Positions 7,896-42,618 of a stretch of DNA of 43,340 nucleotides are shown here, one piece after another. The stretch is from IMG/VR virus record IMGVR_UViG_3300029145_000007, positions 1 through 43,340 of that record. One strand, given 5' to 3'. The first letter of the stretch is position 1. The number at the start of each line of letters is the position of its first letter. The stretch is from a virus. Lineage: Duplodnaviria > Caudoviricetes. Below the pieces are notes generated by a model. It had not been told where the DNA came from, did no database searches, and saw only the letters and a list, made by a program, of their open reading frames with translations. A program made the translations under genes and the position numbers.

Positions 7896-8390
7896 CTATC
7901 CCGAGACTCCCTCAATTTTTTTCAATCGCTTTTCTTCCCTTCTAAGCAATGGTCGAATAGTCCCGACGAGATATTCGGCCAGGAGGTAAGGATCGTAAAC
8001 GTCGTTTTCGTCACGAAACGGCAACGGTCCCATTTTGATTTGTTCCAATGTCCGGACTCGAGACTCTCCGAGGAATTCCGCGAACTCCTTTGTCATTCCT
8101 TTTCCCTCGGGTCCGTTGCAGGTCGCGCATTGAGGCCAAACGTTAAGGAGTAAATGAGCGGTTTGTTTGCACTTCCGCCCGATGAAATGCCCTCCTTGAA
8201 TCGCCTTATCTCGGTAGACGTAAACGTCTCCGCAAGTCACGCAAGCGACGAGGCCCTTTTCGTCCGCGCGTTTGTATACGGCAAGCTTTTGGACGTCCGG
8301 CAAAAGAAACTTACTCCAATGTTTAGGAGTCATTAAGGTTTTGAGTTTTTCCTCGACGAATTTCTCTATCTTTCGGTCAATCGCGTTCAT
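7896..8390 (-). CDS. ninG: NinG/Rap-like (HNH-type) recombination endonuclease
   Basis: CVTCG...QGGHFIGR...NVWPQCATCN. Confidence 0.8.
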   Translation of the reverse strand: MNAIDRKIEKFVEEKLKTLMTPKHWSKFLLPDVQKLAVYKRADEKGLVACVTCGDVYVYRDKAIQGGHFIGRKCKQTAHLLLNVWPQCATCNGPEGKGMTKEFAEFLGESRVRTLEQIKMGPLPFRDENDVYDPYLLAEYLVGTIRPLLRREEKRLKKIEGVSG

Positions 8391-9297
8391 GCTCTGCTTT
8401 CATCCTTTCCGCTATCCATCTAACAACCGGGACCGAGACCGCGTTCCCCATTTGGGAATATCGGTGAATGTCGGCAATCCCCGCGGTCAACGTAAACGAC
8501 TTTCCCTCTTTCAAAAACGATCGTTGAGGACCGTTACTCCCCTCTCGATAGAGCGCCTCGCCTTTGATGACAATATCGACCGCGCCTTTAAAGTCACGCT
8601 CGAGCAACGTCGAGGACTTGTCGGTCTCGACATACTTTCCGAATTTCCTCATTGCAAAGACGGCTAAGTTTTTGTCGTCGCATTGTCGCCGCCCTGAGCG
8701 ATTTCCGTTAGCGCTTGCCGTAAGTGTAATACGTTTCCGTTTTCGCTTGCCCTCCGCAGGATTCCGGAACAAGCTTTCGGGCTCAAATAATATTCGGGAG
8801 GGACCTCGGACGTCTCCAAGACATCCAACAATGAACAATCTACGGCGAGTTTGGGGGATTCCGAAATATTGAGAGTCAAACACTCTCCACGAAACGCCAT
8901 ACCCGAGCCTCTCCAAGTCTGAGAGGCATCGTCCGAAATATCGTCCGTTTTCACTTGTGAGCAAATCGCGGACGTTCTCGAGTAGAATCCAACGGGGAGA
9001 ACTTCTTTCGAGAGCTTCGACAATAAATCGCCATCCGTCTCGCTCATCAGCGCTCCCGCGACGATCTCCGGCCATTGAATGAGGTTGACAGGGGAATCCG
9101 GCGACGAGGACGTCGTATCGAAAAGCTCTCCTTGTGGCATACTCGCAACTCTTGTAAAGGATTGATCTTGGAAAATGACGACGGAGGATCAATTGACATT
9201 TGGGATTGTGTTCGGCTTGGAAAATCGCCTCTCCGATTCCCTTAAATCCGAGCTCAAAACCACCCACTCCCGAAAACAATGATCCTAATCGGAGCAT
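8377..9297 (-). CDS. DNA (cytosine-5) methyltransferase, alpha polypeptide (lacks motif IX)
   Basis: LFSGVGG (I), GFPCQPHS (IV), ENV (VI), QTRRRLF (VIII), QMGNAV (X). Confidence 0.93.
   Translation of the reverse strand: MLRLGSLFSGVGGFELGFKGIGEAIFQAEHNPKCQLILRRHFPRSILYKSCEYATRRAFRYDVLVAGFPCQPHSMAGDRRGSADERDGWRFIVEALERSSPRWILLENVRDLLTSENGRYFGRCLSDLERLGYGVSWRVFDSQYFGIPQTRRRLFIVGCLGDVRGPSRILFEPESLFRNPAEGKRKRKRITLTASANGNRSGRRQCDDKNLAVFAMRKFGKYVETDKSSTLLERDFKGAVDIVIKGEALYREGSNGPQRSFLKEGKSFTLTAGIADIHRYSQMGNAVSVPVVRWIAERMKAEHERD
8664..9140 (-). CDS. Nested alternative-frame beta subunit of the C5 methyltransferase (M.EcoHK31I-type)
   Basis: 158 aa ORF in the +1 frame inside the MTase, with SLLDVLE...YYLSPKACSGILRRA. 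Confidence 0.72.
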   Translation of the reverse strand: MPQGELFDTTSSSPDSPVNLIQWPEIVAGALMSETDGDLLSKLSKEVLPVGFYSRTSAICSQVKTDDISDDASQTWRGSGMAFRGECLTLNISESPKLAVDCSLLDVLETSEVPPEYYLSPKACSGILRRASENGNVLHLRQALTEIAQGGDNATTKT

Positions 9298-10229
9298 GAC
9301 AAAGACTCCTTGAGTTTCTCGAGTCGTTGATTCGTCAAATCAACTTGAGATTGACGGACATCGATTCCGCAATATTGGCGACCGTTTCGGATTGCCGCGG
9401 CCGCGGACGTACCCGATCCGATGAATGGATCAAAGACAATTCCGTCCGGAGGACAAAACGACTTGACGAAAAACTCGGCGAGCCACTCGGGGAACGGCGC
9501 CTCGTTCTCGTGGGCGAGATCGTCTCCCATATGACCCTTGCCGACGTTGCCTTTTATGACGTTTGCCGGATTCGCCAGCTTGGGAGGAACGTATCCCTCC
9601 GCGGTTTGAATGTCCCCGTTTTTTGATCCTCGAGTCCCGACTCCCTTTTTCGTTACTACCTCGTGAGACGGTCGACCGGACTTTTGACGAGATCCATCTT
9701 TCCGTCGATTATTGCCTCCCTTTTCGACCGCTCCTCCCCATTGATTCCGGCGAGTCCCATCGGAAAGTCGATGACTCATCGCTCCCCCGGGCGCCCACTT
9801 AGGAGGATGACCGCAAGCCGTATTATCGGACCAAGGGAGTTTTCCTCCGGAGGTCGCGCATATGATCAACTCGTAATCGTTCCGTAACCAATCGGGGCCC
9901 CCGCTGCCAGGAATTCCGACTCGTTGGAATATCGGAGGTTTTCTCAAGTGGATTCCCGCTCTCTTGAGATCAGCGACCAAAAGAAACGGGGTCGCCGAGT
10001 AATTGAATTTGTGAGTCTTTCCCTCGACCACCCAAGCGACAAGACCTTTTGTCACCCGAACGCATTCGACGAACCTCTCGAGCGCCCAATCGACCCAATC
10101 TTGACCCTTGAGAGAAAAGTCGATTCCATAGGTCCGAGCGTCCTCGTATGGAGGCGAACAAAAGCAGAGGTCGAAAGAGTTGTCGGCAAACATTTTCATT
10201 TGTTTGAGACAATCGCCTTTGATGATCAT
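9285..10229 (-). CDS. Amino (N4-C/N6-A) DNA methyltransferase, beta class
   Basis: CSPPY before HEAPFP-like HENEAPFP and DPFIGSGTS. Confidence 0.92.
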   Translation of the reverse strand: MIIKGDCLKQMKMFADNSFDLCFCSPPYEDARTYGIDFSLKGQDWVDWALERFVECVRVTKGLVAWVVEGKTHKFNYSATPFLLVADLKRAGIHLRKPPIFQRVGIPGSGGPDWLRNDYELIICATSGGKLPWSDNTACGHPPKWAPGGAMSHRLSDGTRRNQWGGAVEKGGNNRRKDGSRQKSGRPSHEVVTKKGVGTRGSKNGDIQTAEGYVPPKLANPANVIKGNVGKGHMGDDLAHENEAPFPEWLAEFFVKSFCPPDGIVFDPFIGSGTSAAAAIRNGRQYCGIDVRQSQVDLTNQRLEKLKESLSCSD

Positions 10230-16691: not shown

Positions 16692-16779
16692 TTTGAAAGA
16701 CAGCTAATCCGGCGACGCCGATCAAAATGATCGACGCGCACACACAAACGACGATAGCCTCGAAATCTCGAGATCTCAT
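16666..16779 (-). CDS. Single-TM peptide (37 aa), not in ORF track
   Basis: ATGA overlap with the csrA stop; [37 protein letters not shown]. Confidence 0.6.
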
Positions 16780-17036
16780 TGCGTCGCTTGGGTCTCTCGA
16801 AACTCTTTCATCGAGTCCGAGTTTTGAGCTTTGTTGACAGCCGCGGCTATTTGCTCATCGGAGAGAGGCTCGATTTTCTCGTCCGAATATTGCTCGAGTT
16901 CACCGCGGACGATCCGGATATTGTCGGGAGCATTTATCCCAATCTTGACCGTCCCTCCCTTCAATTGGAGGATTTGGATTTCGATTCCGCCATCGATAAC
17001 GATCGATTGATTTTTTTTACGAGATAAAACCAACAT
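16776..17036 (-). CDS. csrA: Carbon storage regulator CsrA/RsmA
   Basis: [14 protein letters not shown]...[14 protein letters not shown]; ATG at 17036. Confidence 0.93.
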
Positions 17037-17747: not shown

Positions 17748-17786
17748 TGTCAACCAAAGTTTACAGTCCGAGAAGTCTCCGAGCAA
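17748..17786 (-). promoter_or_regulatory. Promoter TTGCTC-17-TAAACT with operator TGTCAA-CCAAAG-TTTACA (17748-17765)
   Basis: Directly upstream of the HTH gene. Confidence 0.55.
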
Positions 17787-18426
17787 TAGTTCTCAACCTC
17801 GCGACTCTGTAAACCGTTCCGTTTGAGTCGACCGATCGGAGAGGAGAGCCACGAAACCCCCTCGCCGCGCTGACTGATACCGTTTCGGGAGGAGAGTAAG
17901 TCGTCGATCCGTTGGAATAAACTCTCCCGTTTGATCTGTAAACGTTGCCACTCGGGGACATTCCGAGAGGTACGGTCGAGCTTGAGGTCGACGAAATGAC
18001 CGTTTCCGACATCGAGGATAATTGATTCTCTCCCTCCGTAATCGTTACGGTCTCATAAATAGGATTATTGAGGTCGTCGTAACAGTTACCGTAACCGTCG
18101 CAAATTTGCTGATAACCAACGATTCTCCGGACTGTTTTCGATTTTGGCTTTTCGTCGTCCGTTGACCCAAGCGTAATCGATTTGAGATTCATCTTGTCGA
18201 GACGTTCCTCGATCGCGTCAAGCCGCTTTAGTATCTCTTTCAATTGAGTATCGTCCGCCTTTTCAATGTCGAAATCTTGGAACCCATAACGGGCGAAATG
18301 ATCGATTACGGGATCGACCTTTTTTTCCTCGAGATCTATCGACGGCATACTCAAAACCAATTCATCCGACCCGAGAGAAACACTCGAGACCAATCCAACA
18401 ATGAGAAATAATATTACGCGTTTCAT
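17761..18426 (-). CDS. Secreted hypothetical protein
   Basis: Signal peptide MKRVILFLIVGLVSSVSLG, coiled coil, CDGYGNC, Ser/Thr-rich linker and basic tail. Confidence 0.7.
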   Translation of the reverse strand: MKRVILFLIVGLVSSVSLGSDELVLSMPSIDLEEKKVDPVIDHFARYGFQDFDIEKADDTQLKEILKRLDAIEERLDKMNLKSITLGSTDDEKPKSKTVRRIVGYQQICDGYGNCYDDLNNPIYETVTITEGENQLSSMSETVISSTSSSTVPLGMSPSGNVYRSNGRVYSNGSTTYSPPETVSVSAARGFRGSPLRSVDSNGTVYRVARLRTIARRLLGL

Positions 18427-18440
18427 TTCTGCCTTTCGCG

Positions 18441-19292
18441 CTATGGGTAAATGATATGTTTCGAGAACTTCGACTCGACCTTGGGTCGGTTGAGCTTCAT
18501 TCCCGTTGCGATCCAAAACTTATGGTATCCGATCGTTTGCTTGAAATGCTCCTCGTGTAGAGTTGCGATTCCGTTCTTATGGATATTGACTCCCCACGAA
18601 CCCGGTTGATCAACCCCGGGAATATCGTTGAGGAGGATCGGTCGGTCGACTAATACGGCGTGATTCCCTCGTCCGTTGTCGACTCCACAAAATCCGCGAT
18701 ACTTTCCGGAGGTTTGAATCCGCTCGTAATTGCGGCCGGCGTGGATTGCCACTCCTCCAAAGTATCCCATTAAAAGAGCGATCCAAAGCTCCTTGAACGT
18801 CGTTACCTCCTCCCATTCGAATCCGCAAAAGAATGACGCGTTCTCTCGGTCCGCGTTCGTAAAATCTCTCTTGCGAATCTTGGCATAATGCCGCGGAAGA
18901 TATGGAGGGAGTCCAAGTCGTTGACCGAGGTCGAGAGATTCCGATAAAAGCGACCCGTGATCTTTGCCGTCGACGACTTGAGCGTAACCGAACTCCGGAG
19001 ACAGCTTGATATAGAATCCAAAGTTTTGACGGATTACTCGCTCCGAGATCCCTCCTTGCATGTAAAAATTACAAGAGCCTTTTCCGTCCTGATCCTTTTT
19101 GAAAGTATCGATCGGGAACCAATCGGACCTTTTCCATTGCCGATATTTTTCTTTGTAATACTCAATCGCTTGAGCCCAAGTCCAATTGGGGAGAACCGAG
19201 GAAAGCTTTTTCGTCCGAGTAAGCTTGACATTCTCGGCAACCGTTCCGACGACGCGCCCAAATGATCCATATTGTTCTGTTTGCTCTGTCAT
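18441..19292 (-). CDS. Papain-like (C1 family) cysteine peptidase
   Basis: DQDGKGSC (oxyanion Q, catalytic C), LSPEF.Y, GNHAV (H), GSWG. Confidence 0.8.
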   Translation of the reverse strand: MTEQTEQYGSFGRVVGTVAENVKLTRTKKLSSVLPNWTWAQAIEYYKEKYRQWKRSDWFPIDTFKKDQDGKGSCNFYMQGGISERVIRQNFGFYIKLSPEFGYAQVVDGKDHGSLLSESLDLGQRLGLPPYLPRHYAKIRKRDFTNADRENASFFCGFEWEEVTTFKELWIALLMGYFGGVAIHAGRNYERIQTSGKYRGFCGVDNGRGNHAVLVDRPILLNDIPGVDQPGSWGVNIHKNGIATLHEEHFKQTIGYHKFWIATGMKLNRPKVESKFSKHIIYP

Positions 19293-20047
19293 TTGACTAA
19301 CTCCAAGAGATCCTTTTCGCTTTTGGGGAGAGGAAACGCCTTGACGAATTTCCCTTTCTCGTCAAATAGCAGAATCGCGGGGAGTCCTGCCTCTCGAGCC
19401 GCGGCCACGTACTCCGACGCCTCGGGATTGTCGACGTCATACCAAGACGCCTTTTTTACAATGTCTTTCGTCGTTGACAACTTTCGCCAGGCGTCCGACA
19501 TCCTGATATTTCGAGCCGCCTCGTCGAGCTTGTCCCTTTGCTCAATGACGACAACCGCTCCGATATTTGCGTTTGGCTTGGGATCGGGTTTCGGCTCGGT
19601 CTTTTCTTCGTCGTCGTCCTCATCGGGAGGAGGGTCTTTTTTCTTTGCTGCCTTCAAGACCGAGCGGATCCGCCGAGGAGGGCTCTTGGGGAAGTCTTTC
19701 GGGATAATGGTCAACGTGACTCCGACGTCCGATTCCGGCATCGCGAGGAATAGCTTTCCATTCTCCTCTTGGTAATGCTCAAACTCCGCCGGATACCTGA
19801 TATCCCATAACGGATAGCCGTCTTTGACTCCCTCCGGCTCGAGCATGACTAGCGCCGCGTGTGGGATTGTCTGATCATTCTCAAGAGGATAATTCGAAAC
19901 TTTGGCATTTATCCCGACGCCGTCCTCAACGACTTTAATCGACCTCGGAGATACCTTGGGGACGACCACCTCTCGAGGCTCGGGAATTGCAAACCCAAGA
20001 CCGACGACGAGGCAAAAAATAATTACGATTGTCTTTTTCATTTTCAC
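19289..20047 (-). CDS. Exported/membrane-anchored protein with Pro/acidic linker and thioredoxin-like C-terminus
   Basis: N-terminal hydrophobic segment; GLPAILLFDEKGK...PLPKS; coupled to the peptidase gene. Confidence 0.6.
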   Translation of the reverse strand: MKMKKTIVIIFCLVVGLGFAIPEPREVVVPKVSPRSIKVVEDGVGINAKVSNYPLENDQTIPHAALVMLEPEGVKDGYPLWDIRYPAEFEHYQEENGKLFLAMPESDVGVTLTIIPKDFPKSPPRRIRSVLKAAKKKDPPPDEDDDEEKTEPKPDPKPNANIGAVVVIEQRDKLDEAARNIRMSDAWRKLSTTKDIVKKASWYDVDNPEASEYVAAAREAGLPAILLFDEKGKFVKAFPLPKSEKDLLELVK

Positions 20048-20050
20048 TCC

Positions 20051-20087
20051 AAAAAAAACGGTCCCGCCAAATCTTTCGAGGGGACCG
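20051..20087 (-). terminator. Intrinsic terminator immediately upstream of the 20047 start
   Basis: CGGTCCC/GGGACCG stem followed by T8. Confidence 0.7.
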
Positions 20088-20115
20088 CGGGCTCATTGCC
20101 TCTCAAATTTGCTTT

Positions 20116-20625
20116 CTATGCCGCCAAGACGAAAGAGAGATCGAGTCCGATCATTCGCTCGACAATCGCCGCGAATGCCAAAGCCGTTGCCACTCCCGCG
20201 ACGCTCGCAATCGTCATGATAATTTTGATCAATTGACCAATGAATTCGATAAGCTTTTCGGCGCCTCCATTTTCGAACCACTCAAACCACCATTTGAGGA
20301 ATTGTCCGTCGCCAAACTCTCCGACCCGTCCCGAGGTCAAAAGGTCTTGTTTTGATTCGTTGACAACATAATCGGCGAACGCTCGGAATCTGCTTTCGTT
20401 TCTCAATATTGCTCGAGTCCGCCTTGCGAGCTTTCTCTCTTTTTGAGCTCTCCAAGTCCTCCAACGACCGACCTCGGAGATCTTTGTCTCGCATCTTTCG
20501 AGAATTTCCTCGAGTTGATCGTTTATCGCCGTGTCGCACTCTCCAAAGTCGCAACCATCGCAAGCCAAACCGAGACGGGAGAGATCATCCTCCGTCCCTT
20601 TCAATGCTTTGAGTTCCATAATCAA
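20116..20625 (-). CDS. Hypothetical protein with C-terminal hydrophobic segment
   Basis: Coupled to the lipase gene; IIMTIASVAGVATALAFAAIV. Confidence 0.7.
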   Translation of the reverse strand: MIMELKALKGTEDDLSRLGLACDGCDFGECDTAINDQLEEILERCETKISEVGRWRTWRAQKERKLARRTRAILRNESRFRAFADYVVNESKQDLLTSGRVGEFGDGQFLKWWFEWFENGGAEKLIEFIGQLIKIIMTIASVAGVATALAFAAIVERMIGLDLSFVLAA

Positions 20626-21278
20626 TTTCTTTCCGGTACTTTCAAAAGCTCGATATATCGGGGCATCAAATGAGATCGAATGACTCCGCGCGTATATCGA
20701 AAAAGTCCAAAAGGTAAAACATTTCGGAAGCTGTAAAAATTACCAACCCGAAAGACGGTCCCGACGTGTCGCCAGGCGAACAAAGGCCAAAAAGGACAAC
20801 GGGGAACAATGTCTCCCCACGCGTTGAACTGCCAAACGTTCCAATCGGTTTGGATTGCTTCTCGAGAAAAACGAGGGGCCCCAAAAGTTACAACCTGATC
20901 GATCTCGTATCCATCCGCCGCCAATTCGATAGCCGCCGTTTGAGCGAGAGTCCCGCCTCTCGAATGTCCTCCGAGACGAACCGGTTTAGACTTTGAAAGC
21001 CCTTGCTCCTTGAGCCCCCGAACGACATTGACCGGATCGAATCCTCGAGCTATTTCAAACCCGTGAAACTTCCAAACTCGGACATCGAGGTTTTTCAGCC
21101 AATCAAGGAAACCGCTCGACGTTGTCGGCTTGTCGCTACCTCGGACCGTTACCTCTTGAACGCCGTCGACCTCGTCGAGATAAAACTCGGCATTTCCCTT
21201 TTTATGGAATGGTCGTTTGTCCGTGTAAACGTCGCGACTATTGAGCGCGATTCTATGGAGAATCTTTTCGTCGATCAT
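20622..21278 (-). CDS. Class-3 lipase (alpha/beta hydrolase)
   Basis: VTVRGS, GHSRGG nucleophile elbow, TFGAPR, DIVPRCP, H in SHLMPRY. Confidence 0.9.
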   Translation of the reverse strand: MIDEKILHRIALNSRDVYTDKRPFHKKGNAEFYLDEVDGVQEVTVRGSDKPTTSSGFLDWLKNLDVRVWKFHGFEIARGFDPVNVVRGLKEQGLSKSKPVRLGGHSRGGTLAQTAAIELAADGYEIDQVVTFGAPRFSREAIQTDWNVWQFNAWGDIVPRCPFWPLFAWRHVGTVFRVGNFYSFRNVLPFGLFRYTRGVIRSHLMPRYIELLKVPERN

Positions 21279-21442: not shown

Positions 21443-21670
21443 TTACGGAGTTCCCGAGCCTCCGCCGCCTGAACTTTGGAGACAAGCCTTGTAAGCCGCG
21501 ACCGCCGCCGCTACCTCTCCGGCTTTCGAATTCATCGCCGAGACTTTGGCCTCGTAATCGACCGGATCGAAAGGGTCTGCCTCGCAAGCATCCGACGCCA
21601 AAGTTACCGCCGCCGCGTACTCCGCTTTTTTGGTCCCTATCAATGCTTTTTCAGCTGAACAATCAGACAT
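21443..21670 (-). CDS. Small Ala-rich protein with three Cys and a Gly tail
   Basis: Likely start MSDCSAEK at 21670. Confidence 0.65.
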   Translation of the reverse strand: MSDCSAEKALIGTKKAEYAAAVTLASDACEADPFDPVDYEAKVSAMNSKAGEVAAAVAAYKACLQSSGGGGSGTP

Positions 21671-21672
21671 TT

Positions 21673-21906
21673 TTACAAGCTCCTTTTCCCGTATTCGTGC
21701 TCGAGTTGTTTCGCATAAACCCGAGTTGACGGAGCGGTCTCGATACTCGCCTCGACCCAATACCCCGAATCCTCATCCCTTACGATAGCCTCTTTCGGCT
21801 CGGTTTCTACCGTATCTCTTGGGGGGTCGATTCCGATTAGATCAGCCAGGAGGAAACCGAAAAGAACCAAACCAACTCCTCGAATGATTTCCGTCGCGAG
21901 TTTCAT
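21673..21906 (-). CDS. Small protein with N-terminal TM segment
   Basis: Likely start MKLATEII at 21906 (ATGA overlap). Confidence 0.65.
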   Translation of the reverse strand: MKLATEIIRGVGLVLFGFLLADLIGIDPPRDTVETEPKEAIVRDEDSGYWVEASIETAPSTRVYAKQLEHEYGKRSL

Positions 21907-22061
21907 CCGTTCACCATTTGCAAGATCTTGAGAACGACAATAATCCCGAACGAAACCCAAAAGTAAAAGCGTTGTTTCTCTTGGCATCGCTCCAACTCTC
22001 GGACCCGTCGCGCCAATCTACGGACTCTCTTTTTGAGAGCGTTTTCCTCCGACTCGTCCAT
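21903..22061 (-). CDS. Coiled-coil plus C-terminal TM peptide (52 aa), holin-like candidate; not in ORF track
   Basis: MDESEENALKKRVRRLARRVRELERCQEKQRFYFWVSFGIIVVLKILQMVNG. Confidence 0.7.
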   Translation of the reverse strand: MDESEENALKKRVRRLARRVRELERCQEKQRFYFWVSFGIIVVLKILQMVNG

Positions 22062-22205
22062 TTTACAAACTGCCCAATCAAGAGGGGTCGCTCCCTCGGT
22101 TTCCCTATTTTCGAGGAACTCCGGACCTTTTGACCGTGTAAACCTCGAGGTTTTTGGGTAGATTGTCGGAGTCCCACACGTCCAAAGGGATTATAAATCG
22201 AAATG

Positions 22206-22231
22206 ACCGAGTCGAGAGGCTCGGTTTTTTT
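22206..22231 (+). terminator. Plus-strand intrinsic terminator
   Basis: ACCGAGTC-GAGA-GGCTCGGT (GNRA loop, G-U pair valid only on +) followed by a T-run. Confidence 0.65.
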
Positions 22232-22676
22232 ATTTCAACCGAAATAATAAGACGTTTTCGTTTGCCGGATTCCGCCAACCCTTGACCCACGAATCGCGGA
22301 AACCCTTCAAAGTCCGGACCTCCGTTTCCTTTTCCTTGATTTGGTGAAACGTCGCGCCCTGATCTTGTCCGAAAATGTTCGCCTCGTGGTAATCCTTGAC
22401 GGGATCGGTCATCAAAACCGTTGCTTTCTTCCCGACAACGTCTCCGAATACCTTTTCCGCCTCCCAATTGACGTAAGTAATCTCCCCGCGGTCGTTCGCA
22501 AATACGACGGGACGAGAGCTCATATCGGCAATCATTCGATAATGATCGGGATTCGCGCCAATAACCGTACTTTTCATTTGAACGGCGACGATGATTCCAG
22601 CAATGACCGCGATCGCAACCACGATTTGAACAAACAAAACAAGCCGCTTACTTCTTGGCGCGTTCTTTTTAGGCAT
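22230..22676 (-). CDS. Membrane-anchored PAS-domain protein (148 aa)
   Basis: Basic N-terminus, one TM, then YRMIADMSSRPVVFANDRGEITYVNWEAEKVFG..VGK....LM. Start at 22676 overlaps the upstream stop. Confidence 0.8.
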   Translation of the reverse strand: MPKKNAPRSKRLVLFVQIVVAIAVIAGIIVAVQMKSTVIGANPDHYRMIADMSSRPVVFANDRGEITYVNWEAEKVFGDVVGKKATVLMTDPVKDYHEANIFGQDQGATFHQIKEKETEVRTLKGFRDSWVKGWRNPANENVLLFRLK

Positions 22677-23073
22677 CGATCGAATCATCCTCCTCGAGGT
22701 CCTCGTCGTCGTCCTCGAGCTTTGTCTTTTTCTTAATCTTTTTGACCACGAGATCGACAGTCTCAAGACCACCGAGAGAAAGTCCCGCGATAATTCCCAA
22801 GATAACGACTCTCGGGATATAGGTTTGCTCGGCGAATATGAGAGCAATTGCGACTCCCATCATTGCCGTATTCAAAGCGTATTTGATTATGAGGAGGAGT
22901 CGGTCGTCCTCGTGATTTTGAATCTCTCGAGTTGCCGCGGCAATCCCCCCAATCAGTCCGATGATTGCTCCACAAATGACCGTATCTCGGACCGAGATAT
23001 CGACATTTTGAGAGGCAAAAAGGAGGGTAACGATTCCGACGTTCCACGCCGCAATAAGTAGATTTTCGGTCAT
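22669..23073 (-). CDS. Multi-TM membrane protein with basic-then-acidic tail, holin candidate
   Basis: 3-4 hydrophobic segments; tail KKIKKKTKLEDDDEDLEEDD; lysis-position synteny. Confidence 0.6.
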   Translation of the reverse strand: MTENLLIAAWNVGIVTLLFASQNVDISVRDTVICGAIIGLIGGIAAATREIQNHEDDRLLLIIKYALNTAMMGVAIALIFAEQTYIPRVVILGIIAGLSLGGLETVDLVVKKIKKKTKLEDDDEDLEEDDSIDA

Positions 23074-23085
23074 TCCGTTTCCGGT

Positions 23086-23688
23086 TTAGAGTGCGCTTTT
23101 GATTGCTTCCCGCTCGTATTTCGAAATGACAGTATATCCCGCCGCCGTAAGCTTGGCGCCGGTCGATATCGGGAACCATTTCGCCAGCGATCCGATAATC
23201 TTTTGACCGTTCGCCTCGAGGGGAGTAAGGTTTCGACTTGCCGCAAATTCCGACCAAGTCATTTGGACCATTGTCTCCGATGCCTCGTCGAATTTCTGGC
23301 TCAATGGTCCGAGGAGAGTCGGCGTCGCGGCCAGGAATTCGGCGTCGGAAAGATTGACGTAAAACGGCATTCCCGAAATATCAATACAATGTCGTCCGTC
23401 GGCGTGAACCGGTTTCGTTATCAGAAAACAAAATCCGAGACTAAACCCTCCGGCGCCATCGCTGCAAAGGGTTTGGATTACCCTTTCCTTTGTTTGGATC
23501 GGGATCTCCCTTTCGAAAAGCTCCGAGTCGGTCGCATTGAGCGAGCCGTAAGTCAAAAGCCGTCGGAACATTTTTGAGACCAACGCGAACTCTCCCGCGC
23601 TCCAAACCGAAAGCTCGGAGCGAAAGCTCTGATCGTTGTCCGTCAACGCATCCGCGGCGCCCTGATCTCCCAATATTTTCAACATCAT
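23086..23688 (-). CDS. Hypothetical protein (tail-associated?)
   Basis: Likely start MMLKIL at 23688. Confidence 0.65.
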   Translation of the reverse strand: MMLKILGDQGAADALTDNDQSFRSELSVWSAGEFALVSKMFRRLLTYGSLNATDSELFEREIPIQTKERVIQTLCSDGAGGFSLGFCFLITKPVHADGRHCIDISGMPFYVNLSDAEFLAATPTLLGPLSQKFDEASETMVQMTWSEFAASRNLTPLEANGQKIIGSLAKWFPISTGAKLTAAGYTVISKYEREAIKSAL

Positions 23689-23689
23689 T

Positions 23690-26600
23690 TTAAACACCAA
23701 TTCCAAAAATAATGATTTCCTTTTCGTTCTGGACATCCTGAACGATTGAAAGAGGGAACTCCGTAGAGGACCCAAACGAGAGATTCGAGGACAAGTCCAA
23801 AAAGTCTCTAGTTATATTCGCGTTATCGTCGCCATGATTAACGCTCGAGTTAAGATCGAGCGAGTCAAAGGTCATTGGCGAATCGAAAACAACTGCCCCG
23901 GAAACCGTCATTTTCAAATTGCGAATCTTTGCATTCATATAGTAACCGCCATTTCTCGAGAAAATCGCGATATCTCCCGAGTTAGTTCCGGGCGCCGATA
24001 AAGTGGCTGTCGTCTCCGTCCCATCTATGAAAAACGAAATATCGTTCCCGTCTCTCTTGACTTTTAAATGATGTTCCGAACCCTCGACAAGGCTCGACGA
24101 CGGCGACGAATGTTGATTAACTCCCTCGTTTGTCGACCCAAATCTCATCCGAAAACGGTCCTGCGATGTATCCGCCAACAACCCCCAAAGCGTCGCCGAT
24201 CCCCATAGATAGTTTGCCGACGCGCCCGATGGGATAATAACTCTAGCCTCCCACTCCCAATCCGTCCCGTTTAAAAGATTGATTCCGTAATCGATCTCCG
24301 CGTCCGTACCATTCCCGACGACTCGTTGACCGGCGTATTTCGCGATTTGGCAATTTGAAACCGGAGATCGATTGATCGTTTCTCCGCCTGGCAAAAAGAG
24401 AGGATTTCCTCCTTTTACAGTTATTTGACCCCCAAAAGCATCCGCCGAGCCATCATTTAACGCCGGAATGATATCTCCGTTTGAGGGAGTTCCGTTCCAA
24501 GTTGCCGAGACTCCGGAGTCCGTTTTGACCTCGTCTCCCGTTTCGCAAAGTCGGAGCCTCTCGGTCGACGGCGTGGAATCGAAAGCCGCATGGTCGGCGA
24601 GGGTCGAATCCCAAGCCTCGAGATCCCAAAACTCTCCCTTTGCGAGACGGATTGATCCCCAATCCGCCCCCGTTGCCGGCGCCATGATATAGGATCCGTT
24701 TGTCAAGTTTGCTTGAGCCGCGTTCGTTGCTGTTTGCTCAACTCCATTTGTAAAGAGTCGCAAAGTCTTTGAATCAAAGTCCCAAATTATCGCGACCTCA
24801 AAATCCTTGTCATACGCAAAATTAGTTGATGCTTTTCCGACCGCTGAGGGACCGTAATCGCATTGCAAGCGTATTTGACCCGACTCAATATTGACCGAAA
24901 AACGAACGTCTCCTCCCGAGTGAGTATGAGAAAACAAACACGCGTTATTGGGCGCCGGCGTTCGAACGTTGCATCTAAAACGCATCGAAAAGTTTTTCTC
25001 GGGGTCTATGATTGCTGTAATAACGCTTGGAGTTGCGAGCGTGTCGTCCGTTCCGTCTGCCTCTTTGCCCTTTCGAGTAAACCCTTTAACGGCGTTATAA
25101 AAGAATTGATTTTGCGTCGACTCGGTCGGTCCATTCTGCCAAGTCAAATGCTTTCCGCTTCCCGAGACGTCATATCCCGACGCGTCCGGCCAATATCGAA
25201 CAATGTTCGCCGTCTCGAGTTGAGAGGTTGAGATCTCGGAATCGTAAATCCGGACGTTCCAAATCTTCCCGTCGACATATCGATCGTAAGAAGTATTCCC
25301 CGAGATATGAGCGCCAACCTCGACCGGCGTCGTTGTCGCGTGCATGGCGACATAGGTCCCGGTTTCGGACTTGGTCGCGGCCGGCGTCGTCCAACCGTCT
25401 CCGTCGTCAACGTAAAGACTCAATCCGCTTTCCGCTCCGCCTCCGTCGTAAGTCGCCAAAACCTTGTAATTCTTTGAGGTCGAGAGAGGAGAATCGGTTT
25501 CGATTTTGATCGAGTTTGAATTCGTATCGTCGTAAAGAATAAAAACCAAGTCTCCGGAGTCATTGAGAAGGAGAGACCATTCGCAATTTCCGGAATCGAC
25601 GTCCGTTATCTTTGAAACAAGACCGCCTTTTCCCGCGGCGAATGCGTCGACGTTGAACTCGCAATAAACCGCGAAAGGATCGTCCGAGCTTCCGTCTCCA
25701 AATTGGACGTTTGCGCTCGAGTCCGAGGTCCCATACTGATTGACTCCGTCTCCCTCGATACAAGACGCGCCCTCAAGTTTCCAATTCCAAGGAGCTATCC
25801 CGTTGAATGTCAACGAATTTCCTTGAGAGTCTCCTCCGTCGATCCTTGCCGATACCCGGACTTGCTCGTCGATAATCTCGACATTGTCGACCGTAAAGAC
25901 AATATCGGACGCATAGCAAAAGATCTCAATATCGCTCGTCGCGCCATTAACCTCGACCTCGACGTCAATCGACCCCGTCCCGGTTAACCCTGTTTTTGCT
26001 CTCGTTCCGTAACGGTTTCGGACCTCAAATTCGCCCGACTCGAGTCCTCCGGAAACGATCTCAATATCGGCTTTTACTCTGATCTTGTTTGACGGCTTCG
26101 TAATCGCTTGATAAAGACCGACATTCGCCGCGGTTGAATCATACGATATTTTCGCCTTTCCGTTTTCATGAGAGAGAGTTCCGGCGACTCCCGTCCAACT
26201 TGAAACGTCCGAATCGAATGATCCATTTGTCTCGAGCCTTTTGTAAGAAAATCCGGCTCGATTGTAGTCGTATTGACTGATTCGGATATCCGCGGATTCA
26301 TAAAGCGTCGGCGAGTTGCCTCCGGTCACGTTTGGCGAGTTTGCCGTCAATCCCCAAGCTTGATCCGTATCGTATCTCCAACCGAGATCGTCCTCGGTCA
26401 ACTTGTGAATATTGCGATAAACGTCTCGGATCTCTGCCTTTGAAAGAGACGATCCGAAATAAAGCGATTCGATAACCTCTCCGTCGAGATAGTCCGAGGA
26501 GCTTCCGTCGGTCTTTCCAACTGAGATCGTATTTGAGTTTGACGGCTCGTAATCCTGCCCCGTTGCCGAATGAGTCACTCGTCCATTGACAATAACGTCG

Positions 26601-42162: not shown

Positions 42163-42618
42163 TCATCCTTTGTAATGCGTTCCGAATAGATAGTCCGTCC
42201 AAGGGAAAACCGCGCCGAAATTAGTCGTTACTTTTTTATGGTGGTTCAAATGATGCGCTCGAGACCACCGAAACCACGGGACGAGATAAGCTCCCCACCA
42301 AAACGACGGCTCGTCATGTATCGCCCGATGAATAAAACCCCATGACATAAACCACCAAAGGGTAAAAGCCAGCTGATAAATCCAGAAAAACGGATCGGCC
42401 AGGAGGGAGACGGTAATCGTCAACGGCGAGAGGGAGAGATTCGCGACGACCCATTGCCCAAGGCTCAATCCCATATGTCGATTTTCGTTTCGATTATGCC
42501 CATGATGCTCGACGGCGTGGGATTGGAAAAACGAGGATCCGCGTCGGTGCATTGCCCACCGATGGACGACATATTCCCCGAGGGAGCAAACAACGAAAAG
42601 GGTAACGATCGAAATCAT
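42163..42618 (-). CDS. Fatty acid hydroxylase / sterol desaturase family membrane enzyme
   Basis: Four His boxes HRWAMH, HAVEHH, HRAIH, HHLNHH, plus NFG....TDYLFGT and TM segments. Confidence 0.88.
   Translation of the reverse strand: MISIVTLFVVCSLGEYVVHRWAMHRRGSSFFQSHAVEHHGHNRNENRHMGLSLGQWVVANLSLSPLTITVSLLADPFFWIYQLAFTLWWFMSWGFIHRAIHDEPSFWWGAYLVPWFRWSRAHHLNHHKKVTTNFGAVFPWTDYLFGTHYKG

Follow-up and report, generated by a model that had tools for sequence, protein, structure and literature searches.

What does a PAS domain do when it has a predicted membrane anchor, lacks an output domain and is encoded, where the tail genes of a phage end, in overlap with a holin-like gene? The holin regulators known so far react to the dosage of proteins or, in the case of T4, to superinfection. 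If a holin were instead linked to a sensor that binds a cofactor, a phage could time host death directly by chemistry, that of oxygen or redox state, and this would bear on how viruses lyse their hosts along oxic-anoxic gradients in water. The pair in question lies in IMG/VR record IMGVR_UViG_3300029145_000007 (67% complete), of which we analyzed the whole stretch of 43,340 nt, hereafter the window. A sequence-only reading of this DNA had proposed an environment-sensing antiholin, a suggestion that draws on gene position and domain type, or else a decoy that hijacks host sensor kinases; the haem-PAS type of the domain was a point that it missed.

The gene pair and its phage

Pfam and PHROG matches mark the window as a siphovirus-like tailed phage whose minus strand encodes the terminase, lambda-type portal, protease-capsid, tape measure and a concanavalin-type tail protein. 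The holin-like and PAS genes close the tail genes; behind them come a group of genes for membrane and secreted-type proteins, an HTH repressor-like gene and a gene for a CsrA-family RNA-binding regulator (16776-17036, minus strand; Pfam E 2e-20). The CsrA matches gave no host information; to judge from the tail genes and the protease/thioredoxin/lipase block, the host may be a planctomycete. Elsewhere in the window a fatty-acid hydroxylase family gene (42163-42618, minus strand; Pfam E 3e-13) lies directly upstream of the large terminase gene, and C5-cytosine and N6/N4 DNA methyltransferase genes stand side by side (8377-10229, minus strand). An ORF of at most 229 aa (23086-23775, minus strand) separates the tail protein gene from the holin-like gene; it has no Pfam, PHROG or NCBIfam match and is missing from the corresponding place in the related phage L001 described below. 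The window is well covered only in aquatic DNA metagenomes from one study, possibly its source; a single contig spans all of it at a depth of 663 with zero differences, and may itself be the source of the window DNA. None of the RNA data sets listed contained the window, and a promoter scan returned 5 matches against 6.2 expected by chance.

The holin-like gene (22669..23073, minus strand; 134 aa) and the PAS gene (22230..22676, minus strand; 148 aa) overlap by exactly 8 nt (22669..22676, minus strand), the ATG of the latter occupying 22676-22674 and the TAA of the former ending at 22669, so the overlap claimed in the sequence-only reading is exact by sequence and codons. An alternative ATG at 22688 would give a PAS protein of 152 aa and a 20-nt overlap; the N-termini of the homologues agree with the start at 22676. 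From this arrangement we infer that translation of the two genes is coupled. A programmed -1 frameshift fusing them was rejected, as the PAS frame lies at +1 relative to that of the holin-like gene, here as well as in L001, and a slippery site shared by the two was not seen. The PAS frame is open far upstream within the holin-like gene in both phages (22677-22859, minus strand, in the window; upstream of 6004 in L001), for totals of 209 and 190 codons. Directly past the PAS stop lies a hairpin (22205..22226, not assigned to a strand; z -2.27, 4 of 200 shuffles), with a T-run on the plus-strand side and a weak tail on the coding strand. In L001 a hairpin with U7 follows the PAS homologue, and the longer stretch there gives z -0.94, the whole being not significant.

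Homologue searches, which covered proteins of near length, found just three representatives of each gene among 5.8 billion clustered proteins, the PAS homologues being 38-42% identical to the window protein. In L001 (locus L003 is the same contig) the holin-like protein is 56% and the PAS protein 40% identical, the two genes overlap by 17 nt, the same block lies downstream, and the holin-like gene overlaps the last tail-region gene by 4 nt. That tail-region gene (3490-5649 of L001) has a PhoD-like phosphatase stretch (E 1e-4) where the window has concanavalin-type repeats. A third overlapping pair, P0006 and P0007, is very likely, to judge from the protein ends and contig: each comes from a 1259-bp contig, and their ends are compatible with a 20-nt overlap, as were those of 18 of 2000 random N-termini. 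The conservation of the pair, on which the sequence-only reading had made its proposal depend, is thus seen in one relative and very likely in another.

Eight more distant phages found through a tail gene (27-36% identity), mostly fragments with one of the eight complete, contain no match to either gene, so the pair does not appear to be core to this tail type; among them was one weak 25-residue PAS match within a 628-codon frame. Searches by tblastn of 50,697 records of cultured phages found relatives of neither protein, and a search of GTDB genome contigs with the PAS alignment likewise found none. Two metagenome loci, L004 and L005, match only 29 N-terminal residues, and L004 was rejected as a relative, the locus being cellular and unrelated. 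The one FixL-like PAS protein seen in the 50,697 cultured-phage records, a PAS S-box protein of 434 aa from the jumbo Sinorhizobium phage Phosso (L031, 2040-3589), overlaps an 81-aa gene and has no annotated lysis neighbour.

The holin-like protein and candidate lysis genes

The 134-aa protein contains four hydrophobic segments (mean hydropathy 1.47-1.83), comprising three core helices (residues 30-48, 61-79 and 85-103) and a weaker extra N-terminal helix (6-24), and ends in a C-tail that is basic and then acidic. It has the layout of the LydA family, that is, small size, two or three hydrophobic helices and a basic cytoplasmic C-tail, with the N-terminal helix in addition. It matches holin PHROGs 1299, 175 and 6384 (E 2e-4 to 7e-4), and across the three homologues all five PHROG matches at E<0.01 are to holins (families 1299, 175, 6384 and 785; E 1e-4 to 1e-3), with no non-lysis family among them. 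The LydA holin family PF16083 is matched by two homologues at 19.6 and 14.6 bits, below the Pfam cut-off of 28.4 that P1 LydA itself passes at 30.1 bits; P0006 reaches E 1e-3, and the window's own protein has no match to this family. The PF16083 match begins only at residue 34-35, and P1 LydA aligns weakly (E 0.006). In an Atlas feature search the best cluster is 57% PF16083 (score 0.88, 192 shared features), and the Atlas structure matches are unrelated membrane proteins (TM 0.36-0.51). Ahead of the LydA-like core is a conserved loop (residues 17-32; 22978..23025, minus strand) with 11 of 16 positions invariant in all three homologues, which, speculatively, might face outward and offer a docking site. 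What the sequence-only reading called a holin-like gene hence resembles holins by PHROG, PF16083 and Atlas and stays below the PF16083 cut-off. Judged by this resemblance, and without passing the family cut-off, the protein is likely a LydA-type holin, and it quite probably makes lesions in the inner membrane.

A Pfam scan of 56 window ORFs in this 67% complete record recognized no endolysin, be it a muramidase, an amidase or one of another type. Because a classical endolysin was not recognized, a conserved block downstream (window 17761-21278, minus strand; L001 7736-11336) may stand in for it. Its genes encode a class-3 lipase (Pfam E 1e-7), a protein of about 119 aa, a secreted-type 252-aa protein, a papain-like cysteine protease and a secreted-type 251-aa protein, of which the lipase and the protease are candidate lytic enzymes. 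The protease is 73% identical between the window and L001, has a weak match to triticain (E 0.13), and found no relatives in the GTDB genome contigs searched. Past the hairpin are three small minus-strand genes (21903-22061, 21673-21903 and 21443-21670), each kept in L001, that encode a 52-aa coiled coil tail-anchored by a C-terminal hydrophobic helix, a single-helix membrane protein of about 76 aa and a 75-aa Ala/Cys-rich protein. Where scanned they had no Pfam or PHROG matches; the layout of the first is XhlA-like, and all three are possible further lysis components.

The anchored PAS protein

The PAS protein starts with a basic 11-residue N-tail and a single strong hydrophobic segment (residues 12-30, mean hydropathy 3.14), and hydropathy and charge counts predict a membrane anchor at residues 12-31 (22584..22643, minus strand) with five Lys/Arg ahead of it. 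The PAS domain follows at residues ~39-148 (22233..22562, minus strand), with a FixL/DosP-like N-terminal half and a 4-residue deletion. The PAS model TIGR00229 recognizes two of the three homologues above its curated cut-off of 22.9, at 24.4 and 25.8 bits, the window protein scoring 24.4 bits (E 2.4e-5). The window's own Pfam scores all fall below cut-off, including that for PAS_9 (E 9e-4), and the homologue P0003 passes PAS_8 (22.8 against a cut-off of 21.8). An AlphaFold2 model, which had a 2-sequence alignment as input, has a mean pLDDT of 71 and is poor in its distal half (pLDDT <50 at 110-112 and 114-121). Compared with the PDB by VIA-align it gives a best Z of 11.2 (rmsd 3.0, 102 aligned), and the 50 matches listed are PAS, LOV, PYP or phytochrome-type entries; Foldseek yields 26 PDB matches at E<=0.001 and PAS proteins in the viral library as well. 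The Atlas model agrees with the PAS fold, its nearest feature cluster being nameless and wholly viral (80 members, score 0.94, 135 shared features). The fold assumed in the sequence-only reading is accordingly supported by comparison with solved PAS domains, and so is its account of one transmembrane segment and a PAS domain without kinase or cyclase output: the PAS region reaches the last residue, so neither enzyme can fit. A histidine-kinase output is absent, the protein ending with the PAS domain in all three homologues and NF041777 scoring 12.3 bits against a cut-off of 850.

Within the PAS superfamily the domain appears nearest to the haem sensors FixL, DosP and FG214. The best Foldseek match in the PDB is the haem PAS of FG214 (E 6e-5), and ranks 1-10 are divided between FG214, DosP and FixL with six entries and the regulator PpsR with four; the E-values of haem and non-haem PAS domains are less than 10-fold apart. 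VIA-align showed no preference for haem PAS domains, placing FixL at rank 7 and FG214 at rank 23, some 2-2.6 Z below the top. The plasmid proteins nearest in sequence to a PAS homologue are FixL-like kinases; one of them, adjoining a response regulator and an HTH gene, has the best E-value (3e-3) among the matches listed, and residues 24-102 of the window protein weakly match the NCBIfam FixL family (E 0.048).

In sequence alignments His97 (22386..22388, minus strand), invariant in all three homologues, lines up with the residue that serves DosP/FixL-type domains as proximal haem ligand. It lies 7 residues past the LM motif and aligns without gaps to a histidine of DosP (His69 of the 799-aa record, which we take to be the proximal ligand His77 of the literature numbering), of S. 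meliloti FixL 1d06 (alignment E 0.58) and of three FixL-like kinases. This histidine of DosP and FixL is a haem ligand. A further histidine, His111 (22344..22346, minus strand), is also invariant in all three homologues and, 14 residues past His97, sits where FG214 and DosP carry distal ligands, making it a candidate second ligand. A second ligand from the loop past His97 has a precedent, since FG214 pairs a proximal His156 with His175 or Met172 as distal ligand (bioRxiv 10.64898/2026.03.15.711900). The spacing is 14 residues in the window protein against 16-19 in FG214, in a region where the model is poor. No alignment of the distal half to the distal motif of FixL was obtained, and the C-terminal strands diverge strongly from host-type domains. 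At about 40% overall identity, neither histidine varies, nor does FHQIKEKE in the loop on the ligand side, which is modest evidence because just three independent sequences exist. We predict that the domain binds haem.

The main tension of this haem reading is topology. The Lys+Arg bias across the anchor favours an N-in, PAS-out orientation in all three homologues (5:1, 2:1 and 2:1), so that the PAS domain would face the periplasm, whereas PAS domains of the haem type usually lie in the cytoplasm.

Models for the pair and comparison with known systems

We propose that the two genes form a lysis-timing module, in which a LydA-type holin and an anchored PAS partner would be made in step through the gene overlap. 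By binding the holin, the PAS protein would restrain hole formation, and a bound haem may control this restraint: His97, perhaps with His111, would ligate the haem, and a change in O2 or redox state would weaken or strengthen the PAS-holin contact. A periplasm-facing PAS domain, like T4 RI, could dock on loop 17-32 of the holin; in an alternative geometry, a cytoplasmic PAS domain would act on the charged C-tail. As the PAS protein lacks any other output and its gene is coupled to that for the holin-like protein, the latter would be its target. That it is a direct regulator of the holin, possibly gated by haem or redox, seems to us to have somewhat less than an even chance. Given that the 134-aa protein makes lesions in the inner membrane, we incline to the view that the PAS protein acts on it directly, and given such direct action, haem ligation by His97 with or without His111 and an O2- or redox-dependent contact are favoured by a little. 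The reading in its fullest form, in which a haem sensor of the FixL/DosP type has lost its output, become anchored in the membrane and turned antiholin, with a His97/His111 haem switch that gates a LydA-like holin by O2 or redox, is on the doubtful side.

Other explanations of the pair place the PAS protein in lysis without sensing, or the whole pair outside lysis. The PAS protein could be a non-sensing lysis accessory, such as a degenerate PAS docking module, a co-holin, or a second holin with one helix and a globular domain on the outside. This accounts equally well for the coupling to the holin-like gene and fits a PAS domain that is trimmed, with its 4-residue deletion and divergent C-terminal half; the N-in single-helix layout also matches that of T4 holin T (PMC11413866). 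The invariance of both histidines and of FHQIKEKE against so low an overall identity fits a retained pocket instead, and we regard the accessory as unlikely. The same degree of improbability attaches to a membrane module outside lysis, for instance in superinfection exclusion, haem capture or as a small gated channel, at the end of the tail genes, a frequent site of accessory genes. Hydrophobic proteins match holin profiles easily and the holin similarity here is weak, no endolysin was recognized in the 56 ORFs scanned with Pfam, and none of the eight distant tail relatives, one of them complete, matches either gene. Against this, four holin PHROGs, PF16083 and the Atlas features all point the same way with no competing family, the post-tail position and the overlap with the tail gene in L001 fit a late lysis gene, and lydA of P1 is likewise unlinked from its endolysin (PMC9025707).

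The decoy of the sequence-only reading would pair with a host FixL-like kinase through its PAS domain and linker helix and silence or bias the kinase, the holin-like neighbour being incidental. PAS domains commonly dimerize, and the linker and the N-terminal half of the domain do align to FixL-type kinases, the weak NCBIfam match included. The proposal gained no positive support: the same holin-like gene overlaps the PAS gene in every known copy, the position at the tail end is that of a late gene, the charge bias places the domain across the membrane from where a kinase with a cytoplasmic PAS domain would have it, and the C-terminal strands are far diverged from host-type domains. We hold it to be decidedly improbable. 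Returning to holin regulation, literature searches aimed at PAS or haem-PAS holin partners or lysis timing, mostly outside subscription papers, listed no description of such a pair. The pair is real and conserved, and appears to be a variant form of holin regulation, not described before, that belongs to a small clade of phages. If the full haem-switch reading is true, LydA-like holins paired with PAS proteins would make up a general type of lysis clock gated by a cofactor, with lysis time following the respiratory state of the host.

The window PAS domain resembles those of FixL, DosP and FG214 in fold, N-terminal motif and a histidine in the proximal register, and FG214 has a second His/Met in the following loop much as His111 is placed here. 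However, these proteins carry kinase, phosphodiesterase or HTH outputs, whereas the window protein has none, is shorter, lacks a recognizable FixL distal motif and may be periplasmic.

An independent analogue of the arrangement, which could serve as a bench-accessible model, is found in the cultured Cellulophaga phages phi19:1 and phi18:3. In the viral library the Foldseek matches of the PAS model include two (E 0.007 and 0.11) that we tied to Cellulophaga proteins by protein length and a mutual PHROG match: gp108 of phi19:1 (240 aa) has the length of R9ZZL0 and gp090 of phi18:3 (172 aa) that of S0A2B2. In phi19:1 (L010, 33899-34925) gp107, weakly LydA-like (PF16083 E 0.049; holin PHROG 2359 E 0.0065), overlaps gp108 right after the structural genes; in phi18:3 (L011, 9103-10735, gp090-gp092) gp090 lies two genes before a muramidase and cross-matches its phi19:1 relative by PHROG (E 4e-6). 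Neither gp108 nor gp090 has significant sequence similarity to the window PAS family. As in the window pair, a weakly LydA-like gene here overlaps, after the structural genes, a gene for a hydrophobic helix and a PAS-like domain, but gp108, at 240 aa, has a coiled linker and is annotated as hypothetical.

In phage P1, lydA overlaps lydB, which encodes its antiholin, and is unlinked from the P1 endolysin; the mode of action of LydB is stated there to be unknown (PMC9025707). The window pair is like it in that a gene for a protein of 147-148 aa lies downstream of a LydA-like holin gene and overlaps it, and in that no recognized endolysin is linked. The window holin-like protein differs from LydA in its extra N-terminal helix and loop, and its partner is anchored and has a PAS fold, whereas LydB is predicted to lack transmembrane helices and has no functionally characterized homologue. 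The PAS protein was rejected as a LydB homologue (hhalign probability 0.2%, E 0.25; no match to the LydB family PF16084).

The periplasmic domain of T4 holin T has a GAF-like fold, and to our knowledge T4 RI is not a PAS protein. In PMC11413866, T is described as having a small N-terminal cytoplasmic part, one helix and a periplasmic domain, and RI as inhibiting T while still membrane-anchored (for the T4 logic see also bioRxiv 2025.11.12.688109), so that the comparison with RI drawn in the sequence-only reading is a fair one. In both systems an N-terminally anchored partner would restrain the holin in response to a signal. They differ in the holin, which in T4 has one helix and a large periplasmic domain and in the window three to four helices with only short loops, and in the signal, which in T4 is superinfecting DNA and in the window pair is proposed to be the state of a cofactor.
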